From the NCBI GenBank assembly GCA_034004175.1, contig JAVEXH010000001.1, forward strand, positions 1 to 32,198: a DNA stretch of 32,198 bases, given 5' to 3'. The position numbers and the translations under genes are program-made. Every line of letters starts with the position of its first letter. Position 1 is the stretch's first letter. The stretch comes from Spirochaetia bacterium. Lineage in GTDB: Bacteria; Spirochaetota; Spirochaetia; Treponematales; UBA12059. The notes under the pieces were generated by a model that saw nothing but the letters and a program-made list of their open reading frames with translations, made no database searches and was not told where the DNA came from. Shown piece by piece: positions 14,856-29,694 of this stretch.

Positions 14856-14901
14856 CGGGGCAGTATACCCCCCCTTTTTGGCGGGCACAAGCAAATGAAG
14901 A

Positions 14902-15924
14902 CTAGGGTCTGTGTCCGCGTGCGAAGGTTCCCATGGCCATGACATTGGCTTCAGGTGAATCGCCTGGCAGTTCGCAGCCTGCACCGACTATCCACTTCTG
15001 GTTGCCTGCATCGTGCAGGCAGTCCGACAGGGTCCGGTGGACATCCTCGGGTGTGCCTCCTCGGACCACCGAGACGGTATCGATGTTACCCAGGAGTATG
15101 CGGTCAGGACCAAGGGCAGCGCGCGCCTTGGCGACGGGAGAGAGGGTATCAAGGTCTATGATATCGTAGGGTACGTCCACAAGGAGGGGCATGAGTTCCA
15201 TGGTGTTTCCACAGATATGAAGTCTGGCCAGCGCACCGGCCTCATGGATCGCGGTTACGATGGTCTTATGGTGTTTCAGGGTGAATTCGACAAAGATATC
15301 CGGCCCCATCAGGGACGAAGCGGCATCTCCGACGCCGATCAGATCTGCCCCCGCCTGTATCTGGGCCAGGGCAAAGCTGATGGCCTGCCGGGTGGTAAAC
15401 TCGAAGAGTTCCCTGACAAAGTCCGGATCGTCGTAAAAGTCCATCATGAGCCGCGATAGTCCCCGGAGGTCGGCCCCTTCAGCGCAGGGGCCTTCGATCC
15501 AGCCCTCTACCAGCAGCGTTCCACTGACCGCGGAAGCCAGGCCGGCCACCGCTTCCAGCCGGTTGGACATACGCTTGCCCTCCCCGGGGTCGATGATCTT
15601 CAGGGAAGCCAGACGGCTCTTGTCCAGGAGGAAGGCCTTCGCATCATCATTGGCCGGGGGCTCGTCATCGTAGAAGATTACCCCTCCACCGAGGTCGGAG
15701 GCCTCCACCGCCGGATCGGAAATGGCGGATACATGATCCGCGCCATAGCGTTCTGCGAAGGCCAACTGCCCCTTGACCAGCGCATGGTGGTCTGTGGCGT
15801 AGAGCAGGTATGGAACACCGATGCCCCTGGCAGCGAAACTCATGGTGATGGGCATGAAGGGTATACGATCTCCCACACCTCCAGCGATGACTGATCTGAT
15901 CAGTCCAGCTCCGTTCATCGGCAT
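14902..15924 (-). CDS. uroporphyrinogen-decarboxylase-family protein, MtaA/MtbA/CmuA-like methylcobamide methyltransferase (MT2)
   Basis: 340 aa with the URO-D TIM-barrel family look. Putative Zn ligands as in MtaA-type enzymes: RLHICGNT (His-x-Cys) and GAGCELP. AAAGGGGA SD 5-6 nt upstream of the ATG. Confidence 0.75.
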   Translation of the reverse strand: MPMNGAGLIRSVIAGGVGDRIPFMPITMSFAARGIGVPYLLYATDHHALVKGQLAFAERYGADHVSAISDPAVEASDLGGGVIFYDDEPPANDDAKAFLLDKSRLASLKIIDPGEGKRMSNRLEAVAGLASAVSGTLLVEGWIEGPCAEGADLRGLSRLMMDFYDDPDFVRELFEFTTRQAISFALAQIQAGADLIGVGDAASSLMGPDIFVEFTLKHHKTIVTAIHEAGALARLHICGNTMELMPLLVDVPYDIIDLDTLSPVAKARAALGPDRILLGNIDTVSVVRGGTPEDVHRTLSDCLHDAGNQKWIVGAGCELPGDSPEANVMAMGTFARGHRP

Positions 15925-16157: not shown

Positions 16158-16619
16158 TCAGATGGCTCCTGAACTCTTGCGTTCGTTCTGGCCTATCTCG
16201 AAGGCTTGCTGGGAAATGATGCGGCCTTGGCGCTCTATGAGGGCCTTTACCACGTCACCGATGGAGATGACACCGACCAGTTTGCCGTTCTCCTTGACCG
16301 GGAGGTGTCGGAAATGATGGGCAGTCATAAGATCCATGCAGTTTTCTATGGAATCCGAGGGGTCTGCATAGACGATTTTCTTGGTCATAACCTCTTTTAC
16401 TATGGTCGTATCACAGGAATTGGCCTTGAGTATTATCTTTCGGGCAAAATCACGCTCCGAGAAAATGCCGGCTACTTCACCTGAAGCATCAAGCACGAGG
16501 ATGGCCCCGATGTTGTGTTCTGCCATGACTTCAAGGGCTTTCATGATGCCGGTTTCCGGCGTGACGCTGACTACTTCTGTTCCCTTTGAAGCGAGGATGT
16601 CCTTTACCTTCTCCACCAT
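16158..16619 (-). CDS. stand-alone CBS-pair domain protein
   Basis: 153 aa with two CBS repeats (VVSVTPETGIMKALEVMAEHNIGAILVLD...GIFSERD and VYADPSDSIENCMDLMTAHHFRHLPV...GVISIGD). AGGAGG SD. Divergent from the 13-gene operon. Confidence 0.85.
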   Translation of the reverse strand: MVEKVKDILASKGTEVVSVTPETGIMKALEVMAEHNIGAILVLDASGEVAGIFSERDFARKIILKANSCDTTIVKEVMTKKIVYADPSDSIENCMDLMTAHHFRHLPVKENGKLVGVISIGDVVKALIERQGRIISQQAFEIGQNERKSSGAI

Positions 16620-16752: not shown

Positions 16753-16780
16753 TTTACATATGTTTAACCTGAGCTATACT
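16753..16780 (+). promoter_or_regulatory. candidate sigma70-type promoter of the 13-gene operon (TTTACA-N16-TATACT)
   Basis: TTTACA at 16753-16758 and TATACT at 16775-16780, ~50 nt upstream of ATG 16832. TTTACATAT occurs twice as a direct repeat (16739-16747, 16753-16761). Confidence 0.35.
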
Positions 16781-16831
16781 GTCATAGAAATTTTGACCCG
16801 CTCCGGCGGGTATGCATCGAGGGGGAATCCT

Positions 16832-17329
16832 ATGATGACGATCAAGGCTCGAGTGCTGGGTTTCCTGGGTTTGTGGGCTGTGTGGCTTCTGCTGACGGCT
16901 CCCTGGACCACCCAGGAGGCTGTTGCGGGTGCACTGGTAGCGCTTCTTGTCTCCCTGTTGCCACTGTCAGGGGCATCACCACTTGGTGACCTGAAGCTGA
17001 GTCCGAAGGCCTTGGCCTCCCTGGTGGTGTATGTGTTTGTCTTCATCAAAGCCCTGGTGCAGTCCAATCTTGATGTAGCCTTCCGGGTGCTTCATCCGAG
17101 ACTGCCTATCGATCCGGGCATCGTGAAGGTAAAGACCAGGCTGAAGACCCCCTTGGGACGCCTGTTGCTTGCCAATTCCATAACCCTGACTCCAGGGACC
17201 ATAACCGTGGAGATGCACGGTGATGATCTGTACATCCACTGGATAAAGGTGGCCGACCCGGATCCGGAGGCTGCAACCGCGGCCATCGTCGGGAACTTCG
17301 AGAAGTATCTGGAGGTGATCTGTGGCTGA
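16832..17329 (+). CDS. MrpE/MnhE-like subunit (MbhA/MbxA position)
   Basis: Two N-terminal TMs plus the family motif NSITLTPGTITVE. Preferred start is ATG 16832 (GAGGGGG 6 nt upstream) rather than track start 16760. Confidence 0.8.
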   Translation: MMTIKARVLGFLGLWAVWLLLTAPWTTQEAVAGALVALLVSLLPLSGASPLGDLKLSPKALASLVVYVFVFIKALVQSNLDVAFRVLHPRLPIDPGIVKVKTRLKTPLGRLLLANSITLTPGTITVEMHGDDLYIHWIKVADPDPEAATAAIVGNFEKYLEVICG

Positions 17330-17582
17330 TGCGGTGTTTTACGTGGCCGTTGGCATTGCCGTACTGGCCCTGCTGCTGTCCGGCATACGTTTTGCCCTCG
17401 GGCCCTGGGCTATCGACCGGACCGTTGCCCTGGATGCCATGACCATACTGGCAACCTCCCTGATAGTGGCCTTTGCGCTTCTGTCCGGCAGGCGGATCTA
17501 CATCGACGTAGCCATGGTCTATGGCTTGGTCGGCTTTGCCGGTGTGGTGGCGGTGGCCCGCTACCTGGAAGGAGGCTTGTGA
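17322..17582 (+). CDS. MrpF/PhaF-like subunit (MbxB position)
   Basis: 86 aa, 3 TM, typical MrpF length and pattern (LGPWAIDRTVALDAM...YIDVAMVYGLVGF). GTG start has GGAGG 6 nt upstream and overlaps the previous stop by 8 nt. Confidence 0.8.
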   Translation: MADAVFYVAVGIAVLALLLSGIRFALGPWAIDRTVALDAMTILATSLIVAFALLSGRRIYIDVAMVYGLVGFAGVVAVARYLEGGL

Positions 17583-17959
17583 TGCTTGCCGTCATCGGAG
17601 CCTTTGTCAGTCTGACCGGCGCGGTGTTCTTCCTGCTTGCGGCCATAGGCCTCTTGCGCATGCCTGATGCCCTCAACCGCATGCAGGCAGGCACCAAAGC
17701 CACTACCCTGGGATCGATCCTTTTCCTTTTCGGCATAGGCATGATGCAACCCGGTTATCTGGGCCGGGTATTCATTCTTGTGGTCTTCATAGTGCTTACC
17801 AACCCGGTCAGTTCCAACGCCCTTGCACGGGCCGCCCATGCCAACAGGAAGCGTATCGGTGCCAGCCTGTCGATCGACGCCCTGGCCGATGATGAAGCTG
17901 CCATAGCGGCTGAAGACAGGAAAGCCGGCGGAAACAAGGAGGCAGTCCATGGTGCTTGA
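17582..17959 (+). CDS. MrpG/MnhG-like subunit (MbxC position)
   Basis: MnhG signature LRMPDALNRMQAGTKATTLG. ATG 17582 lies 6 nt after GGAAGGAGG (TGATG overlap); GTG 17579 is an alternative. Confidence 0.8.
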   Translation: MLAVIGAFVSLTGAVFFLLAAIGLLRMPDALNRMQAGTKATTLGSILFLFGIGMMQPGYLGRVFILVVFIVLTNPVSSNALARAAHANRKRIGASLSIDALADDEAAIAAEDRKAGGNKEAVHGA

Positions 17960-18275
17960 TATCATGCTACTGTCCGCAGGAGCCATCATGGTCGCCGCAG
18001 GCATAGGCGCTGTCCTGGCGAGGAGCCTGCTCGTCTCCATCATATTGTCCGGCGGCGTAAGCCTGGTGGCCAGCCTGGTTTTCCTGCTCATCGGCGCTCC
18101 TGATGTAGCCATGACCGAGGCTGCAATCGGCTCGGGCCTGACCACCGTGGTCTTCCTGTATGCCCTGTCCCGGGCCAGGCAGGCCGATGACGAGGACTCC
18201 GATGCTGCCGAGATCGGTGCCTCGCCCGTAGTAGCTGAAACCGGGACAAACCAGGAACAGGGAGGCCGGACATGA
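17949..18275 (+). CDS. MbhD/DUF4040-like subunit (MrpA C-terminal-like; MbxD position)
   Basis: 108 aa, 3 TM, motif GAPDVAMTEAAIGSGLTTV characteristic of the MrpA-C/MbhD family. AAGGAGG SD. Confidence 0.75.
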   Translation: MVLDIMLLSAGAIMVAAGIGAVLARSLLVSIILSGGVSLVASLVFLLIGAPDVAMTEAAIGSGLTTVVFLYALSRARQADDEDSDAAEIGASPVVAETGTNQEQGGRT

Positions 18276-18970
18276 TGCGAAGATTCCTTGTTCTGGCTGT
18301 GATCATCGCCCTTGGTGTGGCGATGTGGCCTCTGGTGATGGGTGCCGGGGTTGTCGATGCACCTGCTGCCCTGCCTTCTGCCTACCTGGACGGCGCTCCG
18401 AAGGACTTCGGGGCGGCCAATGTGGTTACCGCCATTGTGGTCAGTTACCGCGGCTTTGATACCTTGGGAGAGGTGGCCGTGCTGTTCGCAGCTACCGCCG
18501 GTGTTGGTAGCCTGTTGTCGCGCAAGCGGCTTGGGACCGGCCTGCCGGCCAGCGGACGCAAGCACGGCACTGAGATCCTGGGAACCGCCAGCAGGCTGTT
18601 GTCCAGCCTCCTTGTCATGTTCGGTGTATACATCTTCATGCATGGACACCTGACCCCGGGCGGCGGTTTCCAGGGCGGTGTGGTCATAGCTACGGCCATG
18701 TTGCTGGCCTTGCTGTCCAACCCTGATTCCCACCTGGCCCACGGTGCCATGACCGCAGTTGAGTCGTTGTCCGGGGCGGCCTACGTAGCCCTGGCCTTGC
18801 TGGGAGCCTTCCTCGGGCTGGGCTTCCTGGATCCACGGATCCTTCCCCCGGGTTCCGTAGGTGCCCTGGTAAGTGCGGGAACCATTCCACTCATCTATTC
18901 TGTCATCGGGCTCAAGGTCGGCGCCGAGCTGTCCGGCATCCTGGATGCACTGAAAGGAGACAGGACATGA
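18272..18970 (+). CDS. MnhB/MrpB-domain subunit (MbxF position, with N-terminal MbhE-like helix)
   Basis: MnhB motifs NVVTAIVVSYRGFDTLGE and GHLTPGGGFQGG. ATGA-type overlap with the previous gene. GGAGG SD. Confidence 0.8.
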   Translation: MMRRFLVLAVIIALGVAMWPLVMGAGVVDAPAALPSAYLDGAPKDFGAANVVTAIVVSYRGFDTLGEVAVLFAATAGVGSLLSRKRLGTGLPASGRKHGTEILGTASRLLSSLLVMFGVYIFMHGHLTPGGGFQGGVVIATAMLLALLSNPDSHLAHGAMTAVESLSGAAYVALALLGAFLGLGFLDPRILPPGSVGALVSAGTIPLIYSVIGLKVGAELSGILDALKGDRT

Positions 18971-19338
18971 ACATGTTAGACTTCCTTGCCCAGCTGAACC
19001 CCGTTGCGGTTCCCGGTGCCATACTCATACTGGTGGGGCTGTGGGGCGTACTGGCCAGGCCCAACCTGTTCAAGATTGCCGTGGCCTTCTGCGTCCTTGA
19101 GACCGGTGTGAACATGCTGATCCTGTCCGTCGGGTACATCCGTGGCCGTACGGCACCCATCTACGATGCGGGTGCCCCGACCGCTGCGCGTATGACCGAT
19201 CCGGTGCCCCAGGCCCTGGTCCTGACTGCCATTGTCATCGGACTTGCGGTTACCGCCCTCATGCTCAGCTATGCAGTGCGCCTGCGCAGCGGCGGTGGCG
19301 CTTCTTCCATAGAAGCCTACGGAGAAGAAAAATGGTAA
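18967..19338 (+). CDS. MnhC/MrpC, NuoK-like subunit (MbxG position)
   Basis: 123 aa, 3 TM with an acidic residue in a TM (CVLETGVNMLIL), as in the NuoK/MrpC family. AAGGAG SD 7 nt upstream. Confidence 0.75.
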   Translation: MNMLDFLAQLNPVAVPGAILILVGLWGVLARPNLFKIAVAFCVLETGVNMLILSVGYIRGRTAPIYDAGAPTAARMTDPVPQALVLTAIVIGLAVTALMLSYAVRLRSGGGASSIEAYGEEKW

Positions 19339-22300
19339 ACCCCCTCTACTTCTTCGCCGCTTCCATGGCGGTAGCCTTCATCCTGCCCCTGGCTGACAAG
19401 CTTGGCAGACGGCTGTCCTTGTTCATACTGTATGCCGTAACGGCAGCCTGGGCAGCGGCTGGAGCCTCCTGGCTGCTGGCCCTGCTTCAGGATGGTTTCC
19501 AAAGTGCACTGCAGAGCGGCGCTGCCACCGACTTCGGTACTGCCGGCTTCGGCGCTCCCCTGGCCATTGTGCTCAGGGTAGGGCTGGTTGAGGCTGCAGC
19601 GGTACTGGCCATAGGTCTTGTAGGCCTGTTGTCCGCTGCCTTCATGCACCGCGACCTGCACAAGGCACCTCTGGGTGGCTCCATGGCCTTCATCATGGCA
19701 GTCATGGGCCTTGCAGGCATCGTCCTGACCAGGGACCTCTTAAACCTGTTCGTGTTCCTGGAAATCTCCGCCATTGCCACCTATGGACTCATAGGCTTTG
19801 ATGACCGCAGGCCTGCCCTGCGCTCGGCCTTCAAGTACATGATGGCCGGCGGCATTGCCAGCGCCCTGTACCTGATAGGCGTCATCTACGTGTACCGCTT
19901 CGGGGACACCCTGAACCTGGACATAGCCGCCGCCGCCTTGGCTGCAAGTGGCACCGCCGGCCTCGGCAGCGCCGCCGGTACGGTTGCCATCTTCTTCCTG
20001 CTGGCAGCCCTGCTGGTGGAGCTGAAGCCCTTCCCGGCCAATGGCTGGGGTATCGATGTCTACGAAACCGCCAATCCCGGTGTGGCTGCCCTGCTGTCCG
20101 GGGCCTCGGCTACCGCCCTGGTGGTGGCGCTCTGGAAGCTGCTGCCCATCCTGGGCACTGCCCACCTGGCCATAGTGGCAGGCAGCGGGCTGGCTACCTT
20201 TGCGGCTGCCAACCTGGCCGGTGCCCGCCAGAGCGGTACCAGGCGTATGCTTGGCTACTCCTCGGCCGCCCAGATAGGCCTCGTAACCGCAGTGGTGGCC
20301 CTGGTGAAGCTTTTGAACCTCGGCGACTCCGGCTTCATGCTGATGGTGGCCGGGGGTCTGACCCTGAACCACCTCCTGGCCAAGACCGGCCTCTTCCTGC
20401 TTTCCGGCATGTTGGGTGACGACGACAGCAAGGCTATCATGTCGCCCCTTACCCTGGCGGTGGCCGGCATGCTGGCCCTTGGCCTGGTAGGCCTGCCTCC
20501 CTTCTCCGGCTTCTGGGCCAAGTGGCAGTTGGTGCAGGCCCTGGCCTCCGGCGGGCATTTCTGGATCATCGTCATAGTACTGGGCGGAAGCCTGGTGGAA
20601 GCCTTCTATATATTCCGCTGGCTTGGCCGTCTTGCAAAAGCCAGGCAGGCTGCCGCTGATCCACTGGCTGCCAGTCTGGCCGATGCCGGCCTCCTGAGGG
20701 CTGGCCGGCAACTAGCCGGCCCGGCCCTGATGGCCGTGGCTCTGGCTGGCTTCGGTGTGCTGGCTGGCCTGGATGCGTTGGCTGGGTTGGAAGTGCTGAC
20801 TGGGGCCGGCGGGAATGCCGCTGTTGCCGGTCTTGCCGGATACCTCCTCTGGGCGCCTTACCTGGCCGTGGCGATGCTGTTCCTGGTGGACCGGGCTCCC
20901 GGCTGGTTCAAGGGGTTGTTGTCCCTCGCGGCGATTGCCGGTTTCGGCTGGCTGGCCTGGGACGGGCTGGATGCACTGCGGCAGTTCTTCGCGGTTATGC
21001 TGCTCGGGGGCGGGGCCATGTACGCTGTGGCTGCGCTCCGCAAGGGCGGAGCCAGACCGGGGCTGCATCCGCTGATGACCATGGTTACCCTGTCACTTGG
21101 TGCAGTGCTGGTGGCGCAGAGCCCTCTGGGCTTCTTCTTTGCCTGGGAAACGATGACGCTGTCCAGCTGGCTCCTGGTACTCCGGGGCCGCAGAGCCGAG
21201 AAGCCAGCCCTGGCCTACATAGTCTTTGGCCTCGGTGGTGCCTTCCTGTTGATGACCGGCCTGGCAGCTGGCGGGCTTGGGACAGCCGGACTCGGGATGG
21301 CCGGGATGGCTGCCGCAGGCAGTTCCGCAACCGCAGCCTGGCCCTTTGCGCTGGTGCTCGTAGGTATTCTGGTGAAGACCGGTGTGCTGGGCCTGCATGT
21401 GTGGCTGCCGGGCTCTTATGCCGAGGCAGACGACGAGGTGTCCGGCCTCCTGTCGGCTTCCCTGTCAAAAGCGGCGGTCTTTGCGCTCTTTGCCCTGGTT
21501 CTGGCCAATGGAGTACCTGGAGCCCTGGCTCTTGGTCCCTGGGCCTGGCGCGCCTTGGGCTGGGTAGGCCTTGTCACCGCCATGATAGGCGCCCTGTACG
21601 CCATCTACCAGGAAGACATCAAGCTTACCCTGGCCTGGTCTTCCATGGGACAGATAGGCTATGTGGTGCTGGCCTTTGCGGTGATGGACCACGCAGGCTG
21701 GACTACCGCACTGTACCTGGCCCTGAACCATTTCCTGTACAAGTCCATGCTGTTCCTGGCCATTGCCGGGGTCATCCAGCGGACGGGAACGCGCAACATG
21801 TACGAGATGGGCGGGCTCATCAAGAAGATGCCCCTGTCCTTCCTTACGGTGCTGATGGCCATCATCGCCCTGTCCGGTGTGCCGCCCCTCTCCGGCTTCG
21901 GAGCCAAGTGGCTGCTGTATTCCACCCTGATCAGCAAGGGCTGGTATCTTGAGGCTGCAGCTGCCTTCTTTGCCAGCGGTGTGGCCTTCCTGTACCTGTA
22001 TCGACTGATACACTCCATCTTCCTGGGCCAGCCCAAGTCGGAACACAAGGATATCCGGGAAGCTCCATTGGCCCTCATCCTGCCCCAGGTCGGCCTGATG
22101 GCCGTCCTGATGGCGGTGTCGGTCTTCCCGTCCCTTATGCTCAACCCGATACTGGCGATTGCCGGCAACAGCTTCGAGCCTATCTTCCGCTTCGCAGGTT
22201 CCGCCCTGCAGTCTCCCCTTGGCTACTGGAACGGCACCCTGACCATGGTGGTAACCGGCGTGGTCTTCGTCCTCTGCCTGGTGTGGATGATGGTCAACCT

Positions 22301-22583
22301 TCACAACCCGCAATCGGTGAAGCAGTTCAACATTGTGTTTGCAGCCGAGCGGCCCCTGAGGCCCAATACCACCCATTACGCCTGGGCCTTCTTCGAGCCA
22401 TACCGTGACGCACTGGGCTTTTTGACCAGATCCAGAGTCGAGCGCTTCTGGTCGACTTTTGGTACCGGTATCAACGGAATCGGAGGAGTCCTGCGAAGGC
22501 TGTACACGGGCAACGGCCAGACTTACGCACTCCACGTCGTCATCTATGTGGTGGCACTCTACTTTTTCATGGGGGCCTTCTGA
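19332..22583 (+). CDS. fusion of two antiporter-like (NuoN/MrpD-type + NuoL/M/HyfB-type) proton-pump modules (MbxH-MbxH' equivalent in one polypeptide)
   Basis: 1083 aa. Module 1 (~aa 1-455): LFVFLEISAIATYGLIGF, ELKPFPANGWGIDVYETANPGVAALLSG, PPFSGFWAKW. Module 2 (~aa 560-1083): WETMTLSSWLLV, LVKTGVLGLHVWLPGSY, WSSMGQIGYV, NHFLYKSMLFLAIAG, PPLSGFGAKW. No stop or frame change between them. Confidence 0.85.
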   Translation: MVNPLYFFAASMAVAFILPLADKLGRRLSLFILYAVTAAWAAAGASWLLALLQDGFQSALQSGAATDFGTAGFGAPLAIVLRVGLVEAAAVLAIGLVGLLSAAFMHRDLHKAPLGGSMAFIMAVMGLAGIVLTRDLLNLFVFLEISAIATYGLIGFDDRRPALRSAFKYMMAGGIASALYLIGVIYVYRFGDTLNLDIAAAALAASGTAGLGSAAGTVAIFFLLAALLVELKPFPANGWGIDVYETANPGVAALLSGASATALVVALWKLLPILGTAHLAIVAGSGLATFAAANLAGARQSGTRRMLGYSSAAQIGLVTAVVALVKLLNLGDSGFMLMVAGGLTLNHLLAKTGLFLLSGMLGDDDSKAIMSPLTLAVAGMLALGLVGLPPFSGFWAKWQLVQALASGGHFWIIVIVLGGSLVEAFYIFRWLGRLAKARQAAADPLAASLADAGLLRAGRQLAGPALMAVALAGFGVLAGLDALAGLEVLTGAGGNAAVAGLAGYLLWAPYLAVAMLFLVDRAPGWFKGLLSLAAIAGFGWLAWDGLDALRQFFAVMLLGGGAMYAVAALRKGGARPGLHPLMTMVTLSLGAVLVAQSPLGFFFAWETMTLSSWLLVLRGRRAEKPALAYIVFGLGGAFLLMTGLAAGGLGTAGLGMAGMAAAGSSATAAWPFALVLVGILVKTGVLGLHVWLPGSYAEADDEVSGLLSASLSKAAVFALFALVLANGVPGALALGPWAWRALGWVGLVTAMIGALYAIYQEDIKLTLAWSSMGQIGYVVLAFAVMDHAGWTTALYLALNHFLYKSMLFLAIAGVIQRTGTRNMYEMGGLIKKMPLSFLTVLMAIIALSGVPPLSGFGAKWLLYSTLISKGWYLEAAAAFFASGVAFLYLYRLIHSIFLGQPKSEHKDIREAPLALILPQVGLMAVLMAVSVFPSLMLNPILAIAGNSFEPIFRFAGSALQSPLGYWNGTLTMVVTGVVFVLCLVWMMVNLHNPQSVKQFNIVFAAERPLRPNTTHYAWAFFEPYRDALGFLTRSRVERFWSTFGTGINGIGGVLRRLYTGNGQTYALHVVIYVVALYFFMGAF

Positions 22584-23497
22584 TGGAAACTTCGATACTC
22601 GCCCGCATCGGCTATGCCCTGGTATCCCTGTTCGTCATAACCAACTACGGCCTGCTGCTCATAGGATCCATGGCGCGGATAAGTGCCAAGGTCCAGGGCC
22701 GTGTGGGCCAGCCGGTCTACCAGCCTTACCTGGACATCATCAAGAGCACGGCCAAACGCAACACCATAAGCCATGGCATCATGTTCTACCTGGGGCCTGT
22801 CTTCCGCCTGGCAGGCGGGGTAGGCACCTTCATGTTCATACCCATGGTGTACGGTTCGGTGCTGTTCCGGAACTTCAGCGATTCCGGTGACCTCCTGCTG
22901 GTGATGTACTTCATCTTCTTCGGCCAGCTTGGCATGGCCCTGGGAGCCAGTGAAGGCGGCCACCCCTACAGTGCCCTCGGCGTAAGCCGGGGCCTGGCCC
23001 AGATGACGGCCTTTGAAGTGCCCTTTGCCCTGTCGGTGATAGCGGTGGTCATACAGTACGGCACCCTGGATATTACCGCCATAGTTGGGGCCCAGCAGGG
23101 CGGGTTCATGAACTGGACCCTGTTTAACAACCCGGTGGCCGTGCTTGCCGCGATGATAGCCTTCCTGGGCATGTCGGGTCACAACCCTTTCAGTGTCGTC
23201 ATAGCACCCCAGGAAATACCCATAGGGCCGCCGACGGAATACCAGAGCAACCTCCTGGGCATGCTGCAGACCAACCGGGCCATCTTCAACGGCGCCAAGC
23301 TGGTTCTGTACATGAACCTCTTCTTCGGCGGTGGTACGAACATTGTCATTGTTGTGATAAAAACCTTCTTGATATATTTCGTGAATGTGTTCGTGGGGCA
23401 GGCCTTCCCACGGCTCCGGACCGACCAGTCGATCCGGTTCTTCCTCGGCGTGCCCACACTCATAGGCATTGCCGGCGTCATCATAGCTGTGCTGTAG
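22583..23497 (+). CDS. NuoH/HycD/MbhM-like membrane subunit
   Basis: 304 aa, ~8 TM. N-terminal pattern RISAKVQGRVGQPVYQPYLDIIK matches the R-x-A-x-Q-x-R-x-GP...QP-x-D-x-xK motif of the NuoH/HycD family. TGATG overlap with the preceding gene. Confidence 0.85.
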   Translation: METSILARIGYALVSLFVITNYGLLLIGSMARISAKVQGRVGQPVYQPYLDIIKSTAKRNTISHGIMFYLGPVFRLAGGVGTFMFIPMVYGSVLFRNFSDSGDLLLVMYFIFFGQLGMALGASEGGHPYSALGVSRGLAQMTAFEVPFALSVIAVVIQYGTLDITAIVGAQQGGFMNWTLFNNPVAVLAAMIAFLGMSGHNPFSVVIAPQEIPIGPPTEYQSNLLGMLQTNRAIFNGAKLVLYMNLFFGGGTNIVIVVIKTFLIYFVNVFVGQAFPRLRTDQSIRFFLGVPTLIGIAGVIIAVL

Positions 23498-23507
23498 GAG
23501 GCGCCTC

Positions 23508-24173
23508 GTGTCAGACAAACAAATCAAACCGGCGCCTTCGGCGACAACAAGAGCTGAATCCTTGACAACGCCGCTGGCCAACGAGGGCCTGCCGCCTGAA
23601 GAGCATGCGTACTTCTGCGATGTGCCGCCCCGGGAATACGAACCTGCCACCAAGGTGGTGGAGGATTTCTGGAACTGGGCCCGGGCCCAGAGCCTGTGGG
23701 TGCTGGGCTTCGGTACCGGCTGCGGCGCCGTGGAACTGCGGCCCCTGATGACCAGCCGCTTCGACATGTACCGCTATGGCATACAGCCGCGGCCAACGCC
23801 CAGACAGTCATCGGTCTTTGTCATCGGCGGCTACGCCTCGGTGAAGACCCTGAAGCGCATCGTCCGCAGCTACGAGCAGATGATGGGACCCAAGTTCGTG
23901 CTGGCCCTTGGCAGCTGCACCATCAACGGCGGCATGTACTGGGACAGCTACAACACCATCAAGCGCATAGACCAGTACATACCCGTGGATGTGTACATCG
24001 CGGGCTGCATGCCCAGGCCCGAGGCTCTGCTGGCAGGCTTCCAGGAGTTGAAGAAAATCATCCGGGCAGGCCAGGCAGACGGCCAGAACGAATACGCCCG
24101 GAACTTCGAATGGTACAAAGAGAACCAGAAGAAGGTCATCAAGGACTGGAACATGCCGGATTACAACTGGTAG
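23508..24173 (+). CDS. NuoB/HycG/MbhJ-like small subunit with incomplete Cys ligand set and an N-terminal extension
   Basis: Colinear by eye with E. coli NuoB: NWARAQSLWVLGFGTGCGAVE / TPRQSS / GSCTINGGMY / IPVDVYIAGCMPRPEA. GTG start has AGGAGG 6 nt upstream. Confidence 0.85.
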   Translation: MSDKQIKPAPSATTRAESLTTPLANEGLPPEEHAYFCDVPPREYEPATKVVEDFWNWARAQSLWVLGFGTGCGAVELRPLMTSRFDMYRYGIQPRPTPRQSSVFVIGGYASVKTLKRIVRSYEQMMGPKFVLALGSCTINGGMYWDSYNTIKRIDQYIPVDVYIAGCMPRPEALLAGFQELKKIIRAGQADGQNEYARNFEWYKENQKKVIKDWNMPDYNW

Positions 24174-24183
24174 GAGGCCGCAT

Positions 24184-24729
24184 ATGATCAAACTTGCTAC
24201 TGAACTGGCGGCCCGTTACGGCTCCCGGGGCTGGCGGAACCAGCGCCCGGATCTGGCCGTCGTGCAGATCGACCTTGCCAGGCTGCATGACGCCCTTGCC
24301 TGGCTCAGGGACAACGCGGGGTACACCCATCTGTCCTTCATGACCGCGATCGACAATATCGAACGCGGTGTCTTTACCCTGACCTACACCCTGCGTAACC
24401 ACGCCTGGAATGATGGCAAGGGCCACAGCCTGATGGTCCATGCCGATGTGGACCGCAGCAAGCCCGTGGTTGATTCCATCCACCGGCTCTGGGGCCAGGC
24501 CTGGACCTACCAGCGGGAGATGAAGGAATGGTTCGGCATCGACTTCCCCGGCAGCCCCAGGGTTGATGAGGAGTTCGTGCTGGAAGGCTGGCAGGGACCG
24601 CCCATGATGCGCCGCGATTTTGACAGCCTGGTCTACAGCGAAGCCACCTATACCGAGCGTCCCGGCCGGGTTACCCACGACCCCGAAACCTACATGAAAG
24701 AGAAGCTGTACCCGGAGGCCCAGGCATGA
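24184..24729 (+). CDS. NuoC/30-kDa/MbhK-like subunit
   Basis: 181 aa. C-terminal family motif WTYQREMKEWFGIDFPGSP (ERE-x-x-D-x-FGI-x-F-x-GHP type). AGGAGG SD. Confidence 0.8.
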   Translation: MIKLATELAARYGSRGWRNQRPDLAVVQIDLARLHDALAWLRDNAGYTHLSFMTAIDNIERGVFTLTYTLRNHAWNDGKGHSLMVHADVDRSKPVVDSIHRLWGQAWTYQREMKEWFGIDFPGSPRVDEEFVLEGWQGPPMMRRDFDSLVYSEATYTERPGRVTHDPETYMKEKLYPEAQA

Positions 24730-25889
24730 AAAAGCAAACTCAACACATTGTGCCTCCTGCCGAACGCGCTGACATTGACCTGGACTCAGGCAAGTACCTG
24801 GTTATGTGGCAGGGGCCCAACCACCCCGGCATAACCGGCAACATGTCCCTGCGGCTGGTAATTGAAGGAGACACCGTAGTCGACTGCGAGACCCACGTGG
24901 GCTACCTGCACCGGGGTTTCGAGAAGCTCATGGAACGACGGTTGTGGATGCAGAACTTCCCGCTGGTGTGCCGCATCGCGGTGCCCGAGCCTGACTTCAA
25001 CGAATACTGCTACGCTGCCGCGCTGGAGGAACTCGCTGGCGTGGAGGTTCCCGACAAGGCCATATGGCTGCGCACCCTGTCCCTGGAGATGATACGCCTG
25101 GCCAGCTTCCTGATGTGGATAGGCGGGCAGGCCGGCGCCTTCGGGCACGGCACCATTGGCCAGTGGACAGTAACCATGCGCGACTACGTGCTGGACCTCT
25201 TCGAGGAACTGACCGGCGGCCGCATCTACCACATGTATATCATACCCGGCGGTGTCCGTGGCGATGTGCCTCCCGGTTTCCTGAAGCATGTGCTACAGAC
25301 CATGGACATCATCCAGAAAAACCTGGATGACATTGAACTGGTAATGTTCCATAACGTGGTCTACAAGATGCGTGCCCAGGGCCTGGGCTACATACCGCCG
25401 GAATGGATCGACCAGTACGGCATCACCGGGCCCAATGCCAGGGCTGCAGGTGTCAATCGTGACCTGCGCAAAGACCTTGGCTATCTGGCCTATCCGCGGC
25501 TCGACTTCCAGCCCATAACCAGCACGGTCTCCGATGCCTACGAGCGGTCCAGGCTGCGTCTGCTGGAAACGCATCAGGCTATCGACCTGATACGCCAGAT
25601 AGTGGCCAACCTGCCGTCAGATGGCCCCTTCCGGGAGAAGCTGCCCAACCCCTTGTACTGGAAGATACCCGCCGGCGAGACCTATGTGGCAGCCGAATGC
25701 ACCCGGGGTGAGTACGGTTTCTATGTGGTTTCCGATGGCTCGGACAAGCCCCGGCGGGTCGCGGTGCGAGGACCCAGCTATACCCATGCGGTGTCTGTGA
25801 TGGAGCGCCTGGTGCGGGGCGTGAACATAGCAGACGTGGCCGGCCTGATGGTCAGCCTTCATACCTATCCGCCCGAAGTCGAGAGGTGA
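24726..25889 (+). CDS. NuoD/49-kDa/[NiFe]-hydrogenase-large-subunit-like protein lacking all Ni-Fe cysteine ligands
   Basis: 387 aa. Family motifs: GPNHPG, HVGYLHRGFEKLME, GGRIYHMYIIPGGVR, ECTRGEYGFYVVSDG, RVAVRGPSYTH. Ends ...SLHTYPPEVER. ATGA overlap with the NuoC-like gene. Confidence 0.85.
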   Translation: MKKQTQHIVPPAERADIDLDSGKYLVMWQGPNHPGITGNMSLRLVIEGDTVVDCETHVGYLHRGFEKLMERRLWMQNFPLVCRIAVPEPDFNEYCYAAALEELAGVEVPDKAIWLRTLSLEMIRLASFLMWIGGQAGAFGHGTIGQWTVTMRDYVLDLFEELTGGRIYHMYIIPGGVRGDVPPGFLKHVLQTMDIIQKNLDDIELVMFHNVVYKMRAQGLGYIPPEWIDQYGITGPNARAAGVNRDLRKDLGYLAYPRLDFQPITSTVSDAYERSRLRLLETHQAIDLIRQIVANLPSDGPFREKLPNPLYWKIPAGETYVAAECTRGEYGFYVVSDGSDKPRRVAVRGPSYTHAVSVMERLVRGVNIADVAGLMVSLHTYPPEVER

Positions 25890-25893
25890 GGCA

Positions 25894-27750
25894 ATGGATA
25901 TAAAGGACTTCATCGCGCCCTTTGCGGTGTGGAAGCGGGCTTTCGAGAAACCCTTCACGGTAAAGAAGCCCATAGACGAGCGCCCTGGCGCACCACGGTA
26001 CCGGGGCTTCCATATAAACGATTCAGCCAGGTGTGTGGGTTGCGGTACCTGCGAAGCCATCTGCATGAACAATGCCATAGATATGGTTCCGGTTGACGAT
26101 TTGTTGCCGGATGGTGGTGATTCGGGCCTGCGGCCCCGGGTGGACTACGGCCGCTGCTGCTGGTGTGCCCTCTGCGTGGACATCTGTCCCTCGGGCTCTC
26201 TTGGCATGAGCAATGAGTATGTCTGGGTAGACCGCGACCCCGAAGTATTCCGCTACACCCCCGGTGTGGAGGCCAAGCCCTGGGACGGCGCCGAACTGGG
26301 TTACCGCCGGGCCGATGGCTACCGCCTGCTTGAAGAAGAACGAGTGGACATGCCCGAGCTGGACCACCACGAAGCAGTGAAATCCTTCCTTGAACTGGTT
26401 CGGGGCTACTCCCGGGAGCAGGCCGAGAAGGAAGCCGACCGCTGCGTATCCTGCGGGGTCTGCGTGGCATCCTGCCCGGCCCATATGGACATACCAGGCT
26501 ACATCCGGGCTGTGCGTGAGGGCGATCTGGAGGAAGGCCTGCGGCTGCTGTACGAGACCAATCCCTTTCCCGAGGCCTGTGGCCGCATCTGTACCCACCT
26601 CTGCGAGGCCGCTTGTTCAGTAGGATCGGGGATGAATGCCGACGGAACTCCGACAGACCCGGTGGCTATACGCTGGCTGAAACGCTACATAGCCGACCAG
26701 GTGGAGCTGGCCGATTACGGCAAGGCCCTGCCCAGGGCCGAAGCTCCCACCGGCAAGAAGATTGCCATAATCGGTGCAGGACCCGGCGGCTTGGCCGCAG
26801 CCTATTATCTGGCCCTGCTTGGCCATGGCGTTACGGTATTCGAGAAAGACGAAGCCGCCGGCGGCATGCTGCGCTACGGCATCCCTGAATACCGCCTGCC
26901 GTACCCCGCCCTGGACAAGGACATAGCCTGGATCACCTCCCTGGGTGTAGAGATACGTTACGGAACGGCAGTGGGCAAGGATCTGAGCCTGGCGTCCCTG
27001 TACAGCGACTACGATGCCGTATTCCTGTCCACCGGCCTTACGGTGGCCTACAAGCTGGATGTGCCTGGCGACAGCCACCCCCGGGTGCTGGACGGCGTGG
27101 CTGTACTTGCCGCCGCAACCAGAGGCGAGCCCCTAGGGCTTGGCCAGAAAGTGGCTGTGGTCGGCGGCGGCAACGTCGCCATGGACGCCGCACGGACGGC
27201 CCTGCGCAACGGCGCCGAGGTGGACATAGTCTACCGCCGCCGGGAAGTGGACATGCCAGCGGACCCCGAAGAGATCATGGAAGCCAAGGCCGAAGGTGCC
27301 ACTCTCATAGCCCAGGCAATTCCCCTGGAAGTGAAGCCCGCAACCGGTCCCGGTGCCGGGCCGGTTGCTGCCGACAAGGCCGGGTCGGATGCCGCCGGCG
27401 AGACCGCCACCAAGGCAACTTTCGTCTGGAACCTGGCGGAGATGGTGCAGAAGGAGCCGGGCAAGCGCCCCGTTCCCGAGCCCATACCCGGTGCAGTGGT
27501 CGAGAAGACATACGACTCCATCATAGCCGCCATAGGCCAAGGCCCGGACCTGTCGTACGTGGCCGAATCCGATGGCATAGAGCTGCGTCGATACAAACCG
27601 GTGATCGGTCCCGATGGCCGCACCAGCCGTGCCACCGTTTTTGCCGGCGGAGACCTGACCAACGACCGCAAGGACGCCATCTCTGCCATAGCCGACGGCC
27701 ACCGCGCCGCCCTGGCCATGGATCGCCTCCTTGCCGGAAAGGAAGCCTGA
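25894..27750 (+). CDS. fusion protein: NuoI/MbhN-like 2x[4Fe-4S] ferredoxin domain + GltD/SudA/NfnB-like NAD(P)H-dependent FAD oxidoreductase
   Basis: aa 47-57 CVGCGTCEAIC and aa 88-99 CCWCALCVDICP (NuoI-type). aa 184-195 CVSCGVCVASCP and 229-241 CGRICTHLCEAAC (GltD N-terminal Fe-S region). KKIAIIGAGPGGLAAAYYL...EKDEAAGGMLRYGIPEYRLP (FAD site). KVAVVGGGNVAMDAART...VYRRR (NAD(P)H site). VFAGGDL...AIADGHRAALAMD. Confidence 0.85.
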   Translation: MDIKDFIAPFAVWKRAFEKPFTVKKPIDERPGAPRYRGFHINDSARCVGCGTCEAICMNNAIDMVPVDDLLPDGGDSGLRPRVDYGRCCWCALCVDICPSGSLGMSNEYVWVDRDPEVFRYTPGVEAKPWDGAELGYRRADGYRLLEEERVDMPELDHHEAVKSFLELVRGYSREQAEKEADRCVSCGVCVASCPAHMDIPGYIRAVREGDLEEGLRLLYETNPFPEACGRICTHLCEAACSVGSGMNADGTPTDPVAIRWLKRYIADQVELADYGKALPRAEAPTGKKIAIIGAGPGGLAAAYYLALLGHGVTVFEKDEAAGGMLRYGIPEYRLPYPALDKDIAWITSLGVEIRYGTAVGKDLSLASLYSDYDAVFLSTGLTVAYKLDVPGDSHPRVLDGVAVLAAATRGEPLGLGQKVAVVGGGNVAMDAARTALRNGAEVDIVYRRREVDMPADPEEIMEAKAEGATLIAQAIPLEVKPATGPGAGPVAADKAGSDAAGETATKATFVWNLAEMVQKEPGKRPVPEPIPGAVVEKTYDSIIAAIGQGPDLSYVAESDGIELRRYKPVIGPDGRTSRATVFAGGDLTNDRKDAISAIADGHRAALAMDRLLAGKEA

Positions 27751-27751
27751 C

Positions 27752-28207
27752 ATGAACCAGACAGATTTTGCCGGGGCCCTTGAACTGGCCCTGGCCAGGG
27801 AAGAAGCAGCGGTTGCCTTCTACGAAGAATTGATGGGCATGGCCTCTTTTGCCGCCCAGAAGTCCACACTCCGGGAGTTCAGGCTCATGGAAGAAGGACA
27901 TGTGGCCATGGTCAAGTCCATGCAGGCCAAAGGCAGGGTAAACCTGTCACCCGATGCCGCCGTGGACCTTGGCCTGGCCCGCCGCCTGGCGGCCGAAGAA
28001 AAACCAGCCGCCGGCATGAGCTACCAGCAGATCCTGTCAGCCGCCATAAAGAAGGAAGAGCGCAGCAGCGACTTGTACCGTGACCTGGCCGCCGCTGCGG
28101 TTGACGGCGAGATACACCTGGTGTTCGAGCGCCTGGCAGCCGAAGAAAGCAGGCACAAGCACTACTTCGAGGAACTGTACGAGAACGAGGTGAGTAGAGA
28201 TAATTAG
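27752..28207 (+). CDS. rubrerythrin/ferritin-like diiron four-helix-bundle protein without rubredoxin domain
   Basis: 151 aa with no Cys. Ligand pattern E...ExxH twice (REEAAVAFYEE, MEEGH, KKEERSSDLY, AEESRH). ATG at 27752 lies 1 nt after the TGA of the upstream gene, with GGAAAGGAAG upstream; track start 27731 rejected. Confidence 0.7.
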   Translation: MNQTDFAGALELALAREEAAVAFYEELMGMASFAAQKSTLREFRLMEEGHVAMVKSMQAKGRVNLSPDAAVDLGLARRLAAEEKPAAGMSYQQILSAAIKKEERSSDLYRDLAAAAVDGEIHLVFERLAAEESRHKHYFEELYENEVSRDN

Positions 28208-28314: not shown

Positions 28315-28348
28315 TGCCATAAATGCAGAAATACTTGCATTTATGGCA
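28315..28348. repeat. perfect 13-bp inverted repeat (TGCCATAAATGCA-N8-TGCATTTATGGCA): terminator of the long operon and/or operator of the downstream gene
   Basis: Arms at 28315-28327 and 28336-28348 are exact reverse complements. It lies 108 nt after the rubrerythrin-like stop and 27 nt before the ATG at 28375. The stem is AT-rich with no clean U-tract. Confidence 0.6.
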
Positions 28349-28374: not shown

Positions 28375-29694
28375 ATGGAACGATTGCTTGTAAAGGAACT
28401 TGAGGCATGGAAAAGCCGACAAGGCAGGAAACCCCTGCTTCTCAAGGGCGTACGCCAATGTGGCAAGACGTATCTGCTCAGGGAGTTCGGCAAAGCACAT
28501 TTCAGTGATGTCGCATACTTCAATTTCGAGCTTACCCCAGCCCTTTCAGGTCTCTTTGAAATTGATCTGGATCCATCCCGCATCATCACTGAACTGGGTA
28601 TCCTGCAAGGGCAGAAGATCGAGACTGAGACAACCCTGATCATCTGGGATGAGGTACAGTTCTGCCCTAAGGCTCTGACCGCCCTCAAGTATTTCTCGGA
28701 GCTGGCCCCAGGGTATGCCTTGGCCTGTGCTGGCTCACTTCTGGGTGTGGCCTTGTCGAAACCCTCCTCTTTTCCGGTGGGTAAGGTTGATATCCTGGTT
28801 CTGCGGCCGATGGATTTCCGTGAGTTCCTGGTAGCAAGCCAGGAGAAGCAACTCATCGACTATGCAGCCGGTTTGCCTCCGGATGGGCAGCTTTCCCAAG
28901 CGTTGATTGACAAGTTTTTGGTAGCCCTCAGGATGTTCCAGATAATCGGCGGAATGCCTGAAGCAGTCTCAGCATGGCTACAGAACCGGAATATGGCTGA
29001 GGTGGAGAGAATACAGGATGCCATCCTGGCTAGCTATGAGCTTGATTTTGCCAAATATGCCCCTCCTGCGGATTTTCCGAAGCTCAAGCTGATATGGAAG
29101 AGCATCCCTGCCCAGTTATCCAGGGAAAGCGGGAAATTCCTGTACGGCCACGCAAAGCCGGGGGCACGGGCCAAGGATCTGAAGGACGCCCTGGGCTGGC
29201 TTACCGAGGCAGGCCTTGCATACAAGGTAGGAAGGGTAGAGAAACCAGCCTTCCCCTTGTCCGCCTATATGGACCAGAAAGCCTTCAAGCTGTACCTGGC
29301 GGATATCGGGTTGCTGCGCCGTCTGGCAGGAGTGCCGGGTTCTGTCATGCTCGACGGGAATACCCTGTACAGCGAGTTCAAAGGTGCTCTGATGGAAAAC
29401 TTTGTCCTGAATGAGTTGCTGCGCTTTCTGGGAGACCTGCCCAGCTACTGGACTTCCGGGAATCAGGCAGAGGTGGATTTTGTCTTCCAGTACCATGACA
29501 GCATCCTGCCCCTGGAAGTAAAAGCAGCGACGAATATTCGCTCCCGAAGTTTGGCTGCCTACAGGGAAAAGTACCGACCGCAACTGGCCTTGCGGACCTC
29601 ACTGATGGCGTGCAAGTCCGAGGATGGGCTGTTGAACATTCCGTTGTATCTCTTATGGAACATGGCTGTGTATGTGAGGAAGGTGCTTTCCTGA
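28375..29694 (+). CDS. AAA+ ATPase with C-terminal DUF4143 / PD-(D/E)xK nuclease-like domain
   Basis: Walker A GVRQCGKTYL and Walker B LIIWDEVQ. C-terminal EVDFVF...LPLEVKAA resembles a D...ExK restriction-endonuclease-fold motif. AAGGGG SD 8 nt upstream. Confidence 0.8.
   Translation: MERLLVKELEAWKSRQGRKPLLLKGVRQCGKTYLLREFGKAHFSDVAYFNFELTPALSGLFEIDLDPSRIITELGILQGQKIETETTLIIWDEVQFCPKALTALKYFSELAPGYALACAGSLLGVALSKPSSFPVGKVDILVLRPMDFREFLVASQEKQLIDYAAGLPPDGQLSQALIDKFLVALRMFQIIGGMPEAVSAWLQNRNMAEVERIQDAILASYELDFAKYAPPADFPKLKLIWKSIPAQLSRESGKFLYGHAKPGARAKDLKDALGWLTEAGLAYKVGRVEKPAFPLSAYMDQKAFKLYLADIGLLRRLAGVPGSVMLDGNTLYSEFKGALMENFVLNELLRFLGDLPSYWTSGNQAEVDFVFQYHDSILPLEVKAATNIRSRSLAAYREKYRPQLALRTSLMACKSEDGLLNIPLYLLWNMAVYVRKVLS

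Follow-up and report, generated by a model that had tools for sequence, protein, structure and literature searches.

An NfnB/SudA-type flavoprotein fused to the N subunit of an MBS/Mbx-type complex in a Spirochaetia bacterium

A fusion of two redox modules in one reading frame

The stretch of DNA analysed here, called the window throughout, comprises positions 1 to 32,198 of contig JAVEXH010000001.1 from a Spirochaetia bacterium (assembly GCA_034004175.1; 32,198 nucleotides). It carries an operon for an Mrp-Mbx-type membrane complex in which the N subunit, a relative of MbsN of the membrane-bound sulfane reductase (MBS) and of NuoI of respiratory complex I, is joined in a single polypeptide to a flavoprotein of the NfnB/SudA type. 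The fusion gene lies at 25894-27750 on the + strand, starts with ATG, and encodes 618 amino acids (aa) without any internal stop. An earlier note on this DNA had read it as one open reading frame (ORF) with two modules in a single chain, and this view is borne out by the open frame and by more than 120 protein clusters of 54-94% identity that cover the fusion from end to end.

All 17 cysteines of the protein fall inside four iron-sulfur (Fe-S) motifs. Both CxxCxxCxxxC(P) motifs that the earlier note had placed in the N part are present, though only the second (C88(89)/91/94/98) is followed by Pro while the residue after the first (C47/50/53/57) is Met, and two further motifs lie in the flavoprotein half (C184/187/190/194, followed by Pro, and C229/233/237/241). 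The flavin adenine dinucleotide (FAD) motif GAGPGG occupies residues 294-299, with the GGMLRYGIPEYRLP segment at 323-336, and the second dinucleotide motif GGGNVAMD covers residues 424-431, with VYRRR at 446-450. Across 62 homologs of 55-95% identity to the fusion (alignment A1), all 16 cluster cysteines, the GxGxxG of the FAD motif (294-299), GGGN (424-427) and Y447-R448-R449-R450 are invariant. Both nucleotide-binding motifs lie at the places given in the earlier note. The cysteines of the flavoprotein half (C184-C194 and C229-C241) are invariant also in alignment A2 of homologs with 39-61% identity.

Pfam models match the fusion as Fer4_7 (residues 46-101), Fer4_20 (163-270; 3.4e-28) and Pyr_redox_2 (from 289; 1e-25), and NCBIfam models of the NuoI type match residues 4-122 and of the GltD/NfnB type residues 145-617, with E-values far beyond chance. 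From its N terminus, the chain consists of an MbsN/NuoI-type domain with two [4Fe-4S] sites whose eight cysteines are invariant in A1 (residues 1-120; 25894-26253, + strand like all that follow), a conserved family-specific linker (~121-147; 26254-26334), an NfnB/GltD-type Fe-S domain with two [4Fe-4S] sites that matches Fer4_20 and aligns with the Fe-S domain of NfnB from Thermotoga maritima (~148-275; 26335-26718), and a Pyr_redox_2 region made of an FAD domain and a dinucleotide domain of the type that binds reduced nicotinamide adenine dinucleotide phosphate (NADPH) (276-618 plus stop codon; 26719-27750). By these motifs, a single chain carries four [4Fe-4S] sites along with one site for FAD and one of the NADPH type.

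The linker had been estimated at ~60 aa, but homology to NfnB begins around residue 147-151 in matches to solved structures and the true linker is therefore only ~25-30 aa long (~121-147). Its residues W130, G136 and Y137 are invariant in A1, and the mean predicted local distance difference test (pLDDT) score per 10-residue block is 93 (121-130), 84 (131-140) and 77 (141-150). The single-chain AlphaFold2 model from which these values come was built from 62 homologs and has a mean pLDDT of 87.9 and a predicted template modelling (pTM) score of 0.85, suggesting that the N domain packs against the flavoprotein in a defined way; only residues 1-35 and 481-507 are poorly predicted. The latter segment is an Ala/Gly-rich insertion of ~27 residues in the NADPH domain (nucleotides 27334-27414) that is not found in homologs of ~590 aa and is predicted to be disordered (block mean pLDDT of 78 and 52 over residues 481-500). 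GC content at third codon positions is uniform across the three parts of the gene (0.70, 0.73 and 0.74) and hence gives no hint of a chimeric join.

The surrounding Mrp-Mbx operon

The fusion is gene 12, and the last catalytic one, of a Mrp-Mbx operon of 13 co-directional genes (16760-28207, + strand) that overlap or are separated by gaps of at most 10 nucleotides. The operon opens with the MnhE-like MbxA (16760-17329; Pfam MNHE 1.4e-39), which is retained ahead of the fusion wherever a locus includes enough DNA. It continues with MbxB, a MnhF-like protein of 86 aa with a GTG start that was placed by position and size (17322-17582); this ORF overlaps its neighbors by 8 and 4 nucleotides, and a MrpF_PhaF gene has the same position in two other loci (L061 and L063, the latter from Thermosipho). 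Next come the MnhG-like MbxC (17579-17959; PhaG_MnhG_YufB 3.8e-23), the MbhD-type MbxD (17949-18275; MbhD 3.9e-20), MbxE with MbhE and MnhB domains (18272-18970; MnhB 1.8e-21, MbhE 9.6e-11) and the MnhC/NuoK-like MbxG (18967-19338; Oxidored_q2 3.4e-18; Na+/H+ antiporter subunit C in NCBIfam).

A single protein of 1083 aa (19332-22583) unites MbxH and MbxH', both antiporter-like pump subunits. It has two Proton_antipo_M stretches and, in NCBIfam, matches of the NuoN type (residues 8-432) and the NuoM type (547-1079). This second fusion accompanies the N-flavoprotein fusion in most related loci, and H and H' are separate genes in L049 (Bacteroidales), L051 (WOR-3), L061, L063 and two Sulfurovum loci with an unfused N (L055/56). 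The peripheral arm is encoded by its NuoH-like membrane anchor MbxM (22583-23497; NADHdh 4.8e-47), the NuoB-like carrier of the proximal [4Fe-4S] cluster MbxJ (23508-24173; best match in the PDB 6u8y_J, MbsJ), the NuoC-like MbxK (24184-24729; Complex1_30kDa 1.6e-21) and MbxL, which resembles NuoD and hydrogenase large subunits without a NiFe site (24726-25889; best PDB match 6u8y_L, MbsL). Together with the fused N, the operon holds the full set of MBS subunits, that is, Mrp-like A-G, H and H' (fused), M, J, K, L and N. No genes for NuoEFG, NfnA or GltB were found among the scanned ORFs of the operon or the rest of the window, in line with the previous assignment of the N part to an Mbx-type complex without NuoEFG, and Pfam and NCBIfam scans detected no Rnf-type domains (RnfABCDEG) in any operon gene.

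The final gene starts 1 nucleotide past the stop codon of the fusion and encodes a ferritin/rubrerythrin-like protein of the di-iron type (27752-28207; Rubrerythrin 3.6e-9) with two ExxH half-sites and without a rubredoxin domain. A rubrerythrin-like gene has the same position in Thermosipho (L063, 11853-12356), and in one lineage a ferritin/rubrerythrin-like domain is joined to the C terminus of the N-flavoprotein fusion itself (L061, 10001-12295; protein P0136, 764 aa). This Rosetta-stone-type evidence makes the product of the downstream ORF in the window a probable partner of the fusion protein. Pairwise similarity between the window protein and its counterparts in L061 and L063 is weak, and about half of the loci had no detected rubrerythrin-like gene beside the fusion.

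A hairpin with a 14-bp stem found by consensus scan (28315-28348, + strand), ~100 nucleotides past the rubrerythrin-like ORF and without a clear T-tract, is a candidate terminator of the operon. Matches in the promoter and terminator scans did not exceed shuffled expectation and deserve little weight.

A membrane complex of the MBS/Mbx type

Comparison with solved structures places the complex closest to the MBS of Pyrococcus furiosus (6U8Y), which provides the best PDB matches of J, L and N. The N domain matches 6u8y_N (1.2e-24; NuoI 5e-13, MbhN 1e-8) with all eight MbsN cysteines aligned and kept, MbxL matches 6u8y_L over its full length (1e-93; Nqo4 8e-62, MbhL 4e-35), and MbxJ matches 6u8y_J (9e-67; Nqo6 2e-30, membrane-bound hydrogenase (MBH) 2e-22), with subunit K of NDH-1 as the next-best match overall at ~1e-40. 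The proximal [4Fe-4S] cluster of MbsJ has a shortened loop and three cysteine ligands (C28, C93 and C123), with C25 being too distant and dispensable, and was proposed to be the catalytic site of MBS; MbsL keeps two vestigial cysteines of a NiFe site (C85 and C385), and mutating them was neutral (PMC7684303). The window MbxJ aligns to MbsJ without gaps and shares a loop of equal length and the three cysteines: the motif "FC25TGC28G" corresponds to "FGTGCG" in the window, and the equivalents of C93 and C123 are kept. Judging by this alignment, the proximal cluster site of MbxJ can have only three cysteine ligands. This signature is kept in nearly all loci. In most of the distant ones, conservation of MbxJ exceeds that of M, K, L and the fusion, an argument for the J site still being where catalysis or coupling takes place.

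MbxL of the window reads "VC82RIAVPEPD", in which C82 is the vestigial cysteine shifted three residues upstream, and "HTYPPEVER" at its C terminus, with Ala and Tyr at the positions of MbsL C85 and C385, respectively. With one vestigial cysteine and none at the C terminus, it lacks a full set of NiFe ligands. Since J, L and N are closest to 6U8Y and the MBS signature is present, we assign the complex to the MBS/Mbx type, as neither a hydrogenase nor a Nuo-type enzyme. The vestigial cysteines of L vary by clade, from "CRIA…TYPPE" in that of the window over "CRIC…TYPPE" and "CRIC…TCPPE" to "PRIC…VCAPE" in Thermosipho, and many bacterial L subunits retain a complete N-terminal CxxC that P. furiosus MbsL has lost.

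Respiratory complex I (Nuo) was ruled out as an identity of the complex: there is no NuoEFG, the NuoB-like subunit has "GTGCG" in place of the tandem-CC, and the N domain and MbxL score below the cutoffs of the NuoI model TIGR01971 (76.5 versus 113; E 1e-21) and the NuoD model TIGR01962 (296 versus 459), respectively. The broad NuoD model NF004739 is passed by MbxL (389 versus 360), which reflects shared ancestry. A quinone-reducing function like that of complex I was set aside because J and L are clearly of the MBS rather than the Nuo type.

The flavoprotein half and its nucleotide site

The flavoprotein half (~147-616) is most similar to T. maritima NfnB (4ylf_B, 5e-77) and P. furiosus NfnI-L (5jca_L, 3e-68) among solved structures, and the large fusions NfnABC and StnABC also rank ahead of true GltD (3e-49). 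In a fold search with Foldseek, the top hits were 5jca_L, 4ylf_B and Xfn (target-normalised TM-score 0.87), and NfnABC/Stn, GltD and DPD came after them. The module resembles NfnB/SudA-type subunits more closely than it does true GltD, and of the complete GltD-type module described previously the architecture stands while the GltD label does not. True GltD and a stand-alone NfnB were both rejected as identities, given that no GltB or NfnA partner was found among the scanned ORFs of the window and that the cutoffs of the GltD models are not reached (TIGR01317 194 versus 447.7, TIGR01318 252 versus 483).

In the nucleotide site, the YRR segment of the window aligns with the YRR of 4ylf_B and 5jca_L, and the 5JCA entry is titled NADP(H)-bound. 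Together with the invariance of Y447-R450, this supports NADPH as the likely nucleotide of the window clade, as had been guessed from the Arg pair. Two types of nucleotide site occur in the family: the "VYRRR" of the window clade (nucleotides 27232-27243 for residues 447-450), which equals that of Nfn NADPH-binding subunits, and an insertion ("RLQK..Y.G") plus "(T/C)SLE" in Thermosipho/PRK13984-core and WOR-3 members (alignment A2), reading "TSLE" in Thermosipho. By the usual rules of Rossmann-fold specificity, the acidic residue of "SLE" suggests that these would be NADH-type variants next to the NADPH-type variants with "YRRR".

Distribution, variants and previous descriptions

The protein clusters carry the annotation "FAD-dependent oxidoreductase" or "glutamate synthase small chain", and homologs of the fusion were found at 59 loci in a scan of species-representative genomes; the window protein is 92% identical to that of Spirochaetes bacterium RIFOXYC1_FULL_54_7. 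Full-length fusions occur in at least 10 phyla and always behind the same operon, with those of the genome scan coming from Spirochaetota, Zixibacteria, Marinimicrobia, Deltaproteobacteria, the purple sulfur bacterium Thiohalocapsa marina DSM 19078, Methylococcales, Krumholzibacteria, Chlorobiota, Fibrobacteraceae, Bacteroidales and WOR-3. Wherever enough upstream DNA is available, the fusion directly follows MnhE-G, MbhD/E, MnhC, H/H' and NuoH, B, C and D (~45 of ~45 loci). Clustering of the homologs at 50% identity leaves a dozen or so representatives with the fusion in full length (39-61% identity), and lower scores belong to NfnB-type modules in other architectures. Thermosipho, Thermotoga, Oceanispirochaeta sp. 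M2 and T. marina DSM 19078 are cultured carriers, and most carriers that we found are fermentative anaerobes (Spirochaetota, Thermotogota, WOR-3, Cloacimonadota and Fibrobacterota).

Some loci deviate from this pattern. Four loci of Campylobacterota (L055-L058; Sulfurovum, Sulfurimonas and a metagenome-assembled genome (MAG) of Epsilonproteobacteria) have the same type of operon with an unfused N of ~135-146 aa; three of the four retain the three-Cys J motif as "YGTGCG", and in L055 and L056 a MnhE-like gene follows N instead of standing at the start of the operon. An apparent split form on one 2.3-kb metagenome contig (L060) has an N gene (59-454, 131 aa) and, after a gap of 25 nucleotides and in another frame, a flavoprotein gene (480-1808, 442 aa), with most of the linker gone; this may be a genuine split or an assembly error. 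An ORF of ~1000 aa in L041 that looked like a further fusion was discarded as an artefact: through a masked stretch of N, the gene runs on into an ORF downstream that has nothing to do with it.

The architecture of N and flavoprotein in one chain is common, catalogued and published, and the window holds a somewhat derived member. Its top match in NCBIfam is NF010590/PRK13984 ("putative oxidoreductase"), a full-length model with the same architecture, but at 635 bits it stays below the cutoff of 946. The 481-507 insertion splits this match into two stretches, the best covering residues 2-480 (profile 7-493) and the second lying beyond the insertion, whereas homologs without the insertion match in a single stretch (profile ~6-610) and every fusion representative covers ~1-611. 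Only P0139 from Thermosipho melanesiensis (ABR31076.1) exceeds the cutoff with 1195 bits, while P0136 reaches 909. The combination of an end-to-end match with a score below the cutoff puts the window protein in a wider PRK13984-type family, outside the narrow equivalog.

Mbx-like operons in which a gltD-like flavoprotein stands in for NuoI are on record; the flavoprotein was read as the site of NAD(P)+ reduction, and the operon, as that paper puts it, "often terminates with rubrerythrin" (Degli Esposti 2015, PMC4758237). PRK13984, that paper and the Thermosipho operon answer with a yes the earlier note's question of whether such a fusion had been described before. In T. maritima, mbxA was found to be up 4.4-fold with S0, and its complex was modelled as a ferredoxin-dependent sulfur reductase (PMC9431562). 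A full-text literature search turned up no study on the biochemistry or structure of the fused subunit, and earlier descriptions beyond the reach of that search are possible.

Relationship to known systems

The operon of T. melanesiensis has the same gene order as that of the window (MnhE, F, G, MbhD, MbhE/MnhB, MnhC, H, H', NuoH, B, C, D, the fusion and a rubrerythrin-like gene), and its fusion protein is ~45% identical to ours. The two types differ in that H and H' are separate in the Thermosipho type and fused in the window clade, in the J motif ("YCTGCG" versus "FGTGCG", with Gly at the MbsJ Cys25 position) and in the L motifs ("PRIC…VCAPE" versus "VCRIA…TYPPE"), besides the nucleotide site described above. 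With P. furiosus MBS, the window complex shares two antiporter-like subunits and a full Mrp module. P. furiosus MbsN has no flavoprotein and receives electrons from ferredoxin only, whereas the N of the window carries one, and P. furiosus has C85 and C385 in MbsL and separate H and H', whereas the window L is without both cysteines and its H and H' are fused. Reduction of sulfane is an activity of MBS, to which the bacterial fused complexes are likened by sequence.

The NfnB/NfnI-L/SudA type of flavoprotein (4YLF_B, 5JCA_L and 5VJ7, as well as the larger fusions 9BOV, 8OH5 and 9N5U) has the same two Fe-S motifs, FAD site and YRR site as the window module, which differs in having no NfnA/NfnS partner and in its covalent attachment to a subunit of a membrane complex. 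A SudA/GltD-type NADPH module is also tied to an Mbh/Mbx-type complex in the SudA-linked MBX of Desulfurococcaceae (Thermosphaera aggregans Tagg_0050-0059); the authors of the Thermosphaera genome paper discussed these operons as encoding NADPH dehydrogenase-linked MBX complexes and proposed that they reduce protons or sulfur (PMC3035292). By the description in that paper, however, sudA is a separate gene at the position of fdhA in formate-hydrogenlyase (FHL)-type clusters, and the core belongs to a different, Mbh/FHL-like lineage. Complex I realizes the same idea with NuoEFG and NuoI, that is, a flavin site for pyridine nucleotide feeding an Fe-S chain that leads to the NuoB cluster, and the N domain of the fusion is a NuoI homolog; the flavoprotein of complex I is unrelated, being of the NuoF type with flavin mononucleotide as opposed to the NfnB type with FAD in the window. 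To Rnf there is a functional analogy only, as no Rnf-type domains occur in the window operon.

Genes flanking the operon

Directly downstream of the operon lies a gene for an ATPase with AAA_14 and DUF4143 domains (28375-29694, + strand). The region upstream is on the opposite strand (9897-15924 and 16158-16619, - strand) and encodes two periplasmic sugar-binding-type proteins, a sensor with His_kinase and HAMP domains, an AraC-type response regulator and a URO-D-family protein, with a tandem-CBS-domain protein just before the operon. No link between these upstream - strand genes and the Mbx operon is evident.

A possible NADPH-fed ion pump

Complex-I-like machines such as MBH, MBS, Fpo, NDH-1 and Nuo differ mainly in the input and output modules on a common pump. 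For the complex of the window, we propose that the fusion is the N subunit through which electrons enter an ion-translocating, Mrp-derived complex of the MBS/Mbx type, that this subunit is equipped with an NfnB/SudA-type NADPH flavoprotein and that electrons would pass from NADPH to a sulfane-type acceptor, a reading to which we give about an even chance of being right. It takes up the option of the earlier note in which NAD(P)H is the donor and adds a sulfane-type acceptor. Somewhat short of that, and thus more tentatively, we suggest that the family as a whole are NAD(P)H-driven, ion-pumping reductases of sulfane sulfur or another non-quinone acceptor. They would then be a second, independent complex-I-type solution in which an NfnB-type FAD module replaces NuoEFG, with NADPH and NADH variants and a di-iron partner.

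In the proposed mechanism, NADPH would give hydride to FAD, from where electrons would travel singly through the two NfnB-type clusters and the distal and medial clusters of N to the proximal cluster of MbxJ. The free iron of the latter would reduce sulfane sulfur, either polysulfide or an organic counterpart, as P. furiosus MBS does, and the redox step at the J/L/M interface would drive the fused H-H' pumps and the Mrp Na+/H+ module. The flavoprotein, an input module recruited independently, would thereby take over what NuoEFG does in complex I. The Fe-S chain may nonetheless accept electrons from reduced ferredoxin as well, and the reaction may run in either direction. The ferritin/rubrerythrin-like protein may be an accessory partner, possibly a scavenger of peroxide or O2 that is fed by the same flavoprotein. 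The earlier note's inference that the Fe-S chain of the complex is connected to a pyridine-nucleotide site fits well with the 16 invariant cysteines, the pTM of 0.85 and the conserved synteny. A sulfur acceptor is favored by the indirect hint that mbxA of T. maritima is induced by S0 while the same fused N is present in the related Thermosipho operon.

By an estimate from textbook potentials, the transfer of electrons from NAD(P)H to polysulfide would yield roughly 10-12 kJ per 2 e-. This is comparable to the 12 kJ per 2 e- from which MBH does conserve energy, and 42 kJ per 2 e- are available to ferredoxin-driven MBS (PMC8165549). Compared to the latter, 10-12 kJ seem meagre for two pump subunits and an antiporter module, and other points also weigh against an NADPH-fed sulfane reductase. 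The sulfane acceptor is proposed by similarity to MBS, the window L is without both vestigial cysteines of MbsL (C85 and C385; though these are neutral in MBS), and cultured Salinispira pacifica used neither S0 nor thiosulfate (PMC4511686), with the operon seen here in MAGs of that genus. In the literature searched, no biochemical data on any fused member were found.

Among the alternatives, the complex could be an ion-pumping ferredoxin:NAD(P)+ oxidoreductase analogous to Rnf, the other option of the earlier note, with electrons flowing from ferredoxin through the Fe-S chain and FAD to NADP+ and ~25-35 kJ per 2 e- driving ion export. This is the function given to mbx-like operons with a gltD-like subunit (Degli Esposti 2015, PMC4758237) and to bacterial Mbx in several genome papers; NfnB-type modules are reversible and usually make NADPH, and the energy span would better suit a complex with several pumps. 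Yet the assignment was inherited from an older model of P. furiosus Mbx, an enzyme that later work showed to reduce sulfane in a ferredoxin-dependent way (MBS), and the path would bypass the J cluster and the J/L/M coupling site even though, of these subunits, J is the most conserved in most distant loci and the MBS signature is kept. At least one carrier, T. maritima, additionally has Rnf (PMC9431562). We regard an Rnf-like function as unlikely and prefer an NADPH-fed sulfane reductase because the route from ferredoxin to FAD would leave out the best-conserved part of the complex and because the competing assignment rests on a superseded model.

It is improbable, but worth considering particularly for sulfur-oxidizing carriers, that the machine operates in reverse: at the J/L site, sulfide, polysulfide or some other weak donor would give up electrons, which the membrane potential would drive uphill to NADP+, so as to supply NADPH. 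Full-length fusions are indeed found in T. marina and in MAGs of Chlorobiota and Methylococcales, complex-I-type machines are reversible, and a putative Mrp-Mbx complex of the Riftia symbiont is co-expressed with the reductive tricarboxylic acid cycle (PMC11636981). Most carriers are, however, fermentative anaerobes that need electron sinks and not reverse electron flow.

Slightly less probable again is flavin-based bifurcation or confurcation at the NfnB-type FAD, which would link NADPH, ferredoxin and the acceptor of the membrane arm. Among solved structures, those nearest to the module in sequence all belong to bifurcating enzymes, of which they are the subunits that bind NADPH (NfnAB, NfnI, NfnABC and StnABC); the fold search adds only the related Xfn to these, and all of them come ahead of GltD. 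But GltD and DPD have the same fold without bifurcating, the scanned ORFs of operon and window include no NfnA/NfnS-like partner with [2Fe-2S] and FAD (PyrK-like), and we estimate that a polysulfide-type acceptor (~-260 mV) offers too little to reduce ferredoxin and also pump ions.

We are at least as doubtful of a primary role in oxidative stress, in which NADPH would reduce the ferritin/rubrerythrin-like partner via the flavoprotein and thus remove H2O2 or O2 near the exposed catalytic cluster. The position of the partner gene 1 nucleotide past the fusion, its recurrence in Thermosipho and its fusion to the same polypeptide in L061 all speak for such a role, as does NCBIfam PRK12775, described as a glutamate-synthase-beta-like part plus a ferritin domain. 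Nevertheless, roughly half of the loci have no detected rubrerythrin-like gene by the fusion while the flavoprotein fusion is constant, the rubrerythrin-like proteins are only weakly similar in pairwise comparison, and the fusion to N specifically would be left unexplained. Finally, a join of two genes by sequencing or assembly error, for which one could cite the L060 contig, where N (131 aa) and the flavoprotein (442 aa) are encoded by two genes, has a negligible probability and is already refuted by the breadth of independent full-length homologs, with an open frame in the window, in more than 120 independent clusters and at ~50 genome loci of many phyla including isolates, and by the conserved linker.

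Implications

The fused family is widespread in uncultured anaerobes, among them Spirochaetota, Cloacimonadota, WOR-3, Zixibacteria, Marinimicrobia and Fibrobacterota, and in some sulfur-oxidizing Gammaproteobacteria and Chlorobiota. Genome papers model the complex in one of two ways, either as an oxidoreductase between ferredoxin and NADP+ or as a sulfur reductase that depends on ferredoxin, and the second model especially omits the flavoprotein domain. As the architecture itself has already been published, the value of our analysis lies in a defined experiment on function and not in a discovery. If the complex indeed couples electron transfer from NAD(P)H to sulfane with ion pumping, it would be a natural example of an alternative N-module, and for many fermenters the energy yield and sulfur cycling would have to be predicted anew.

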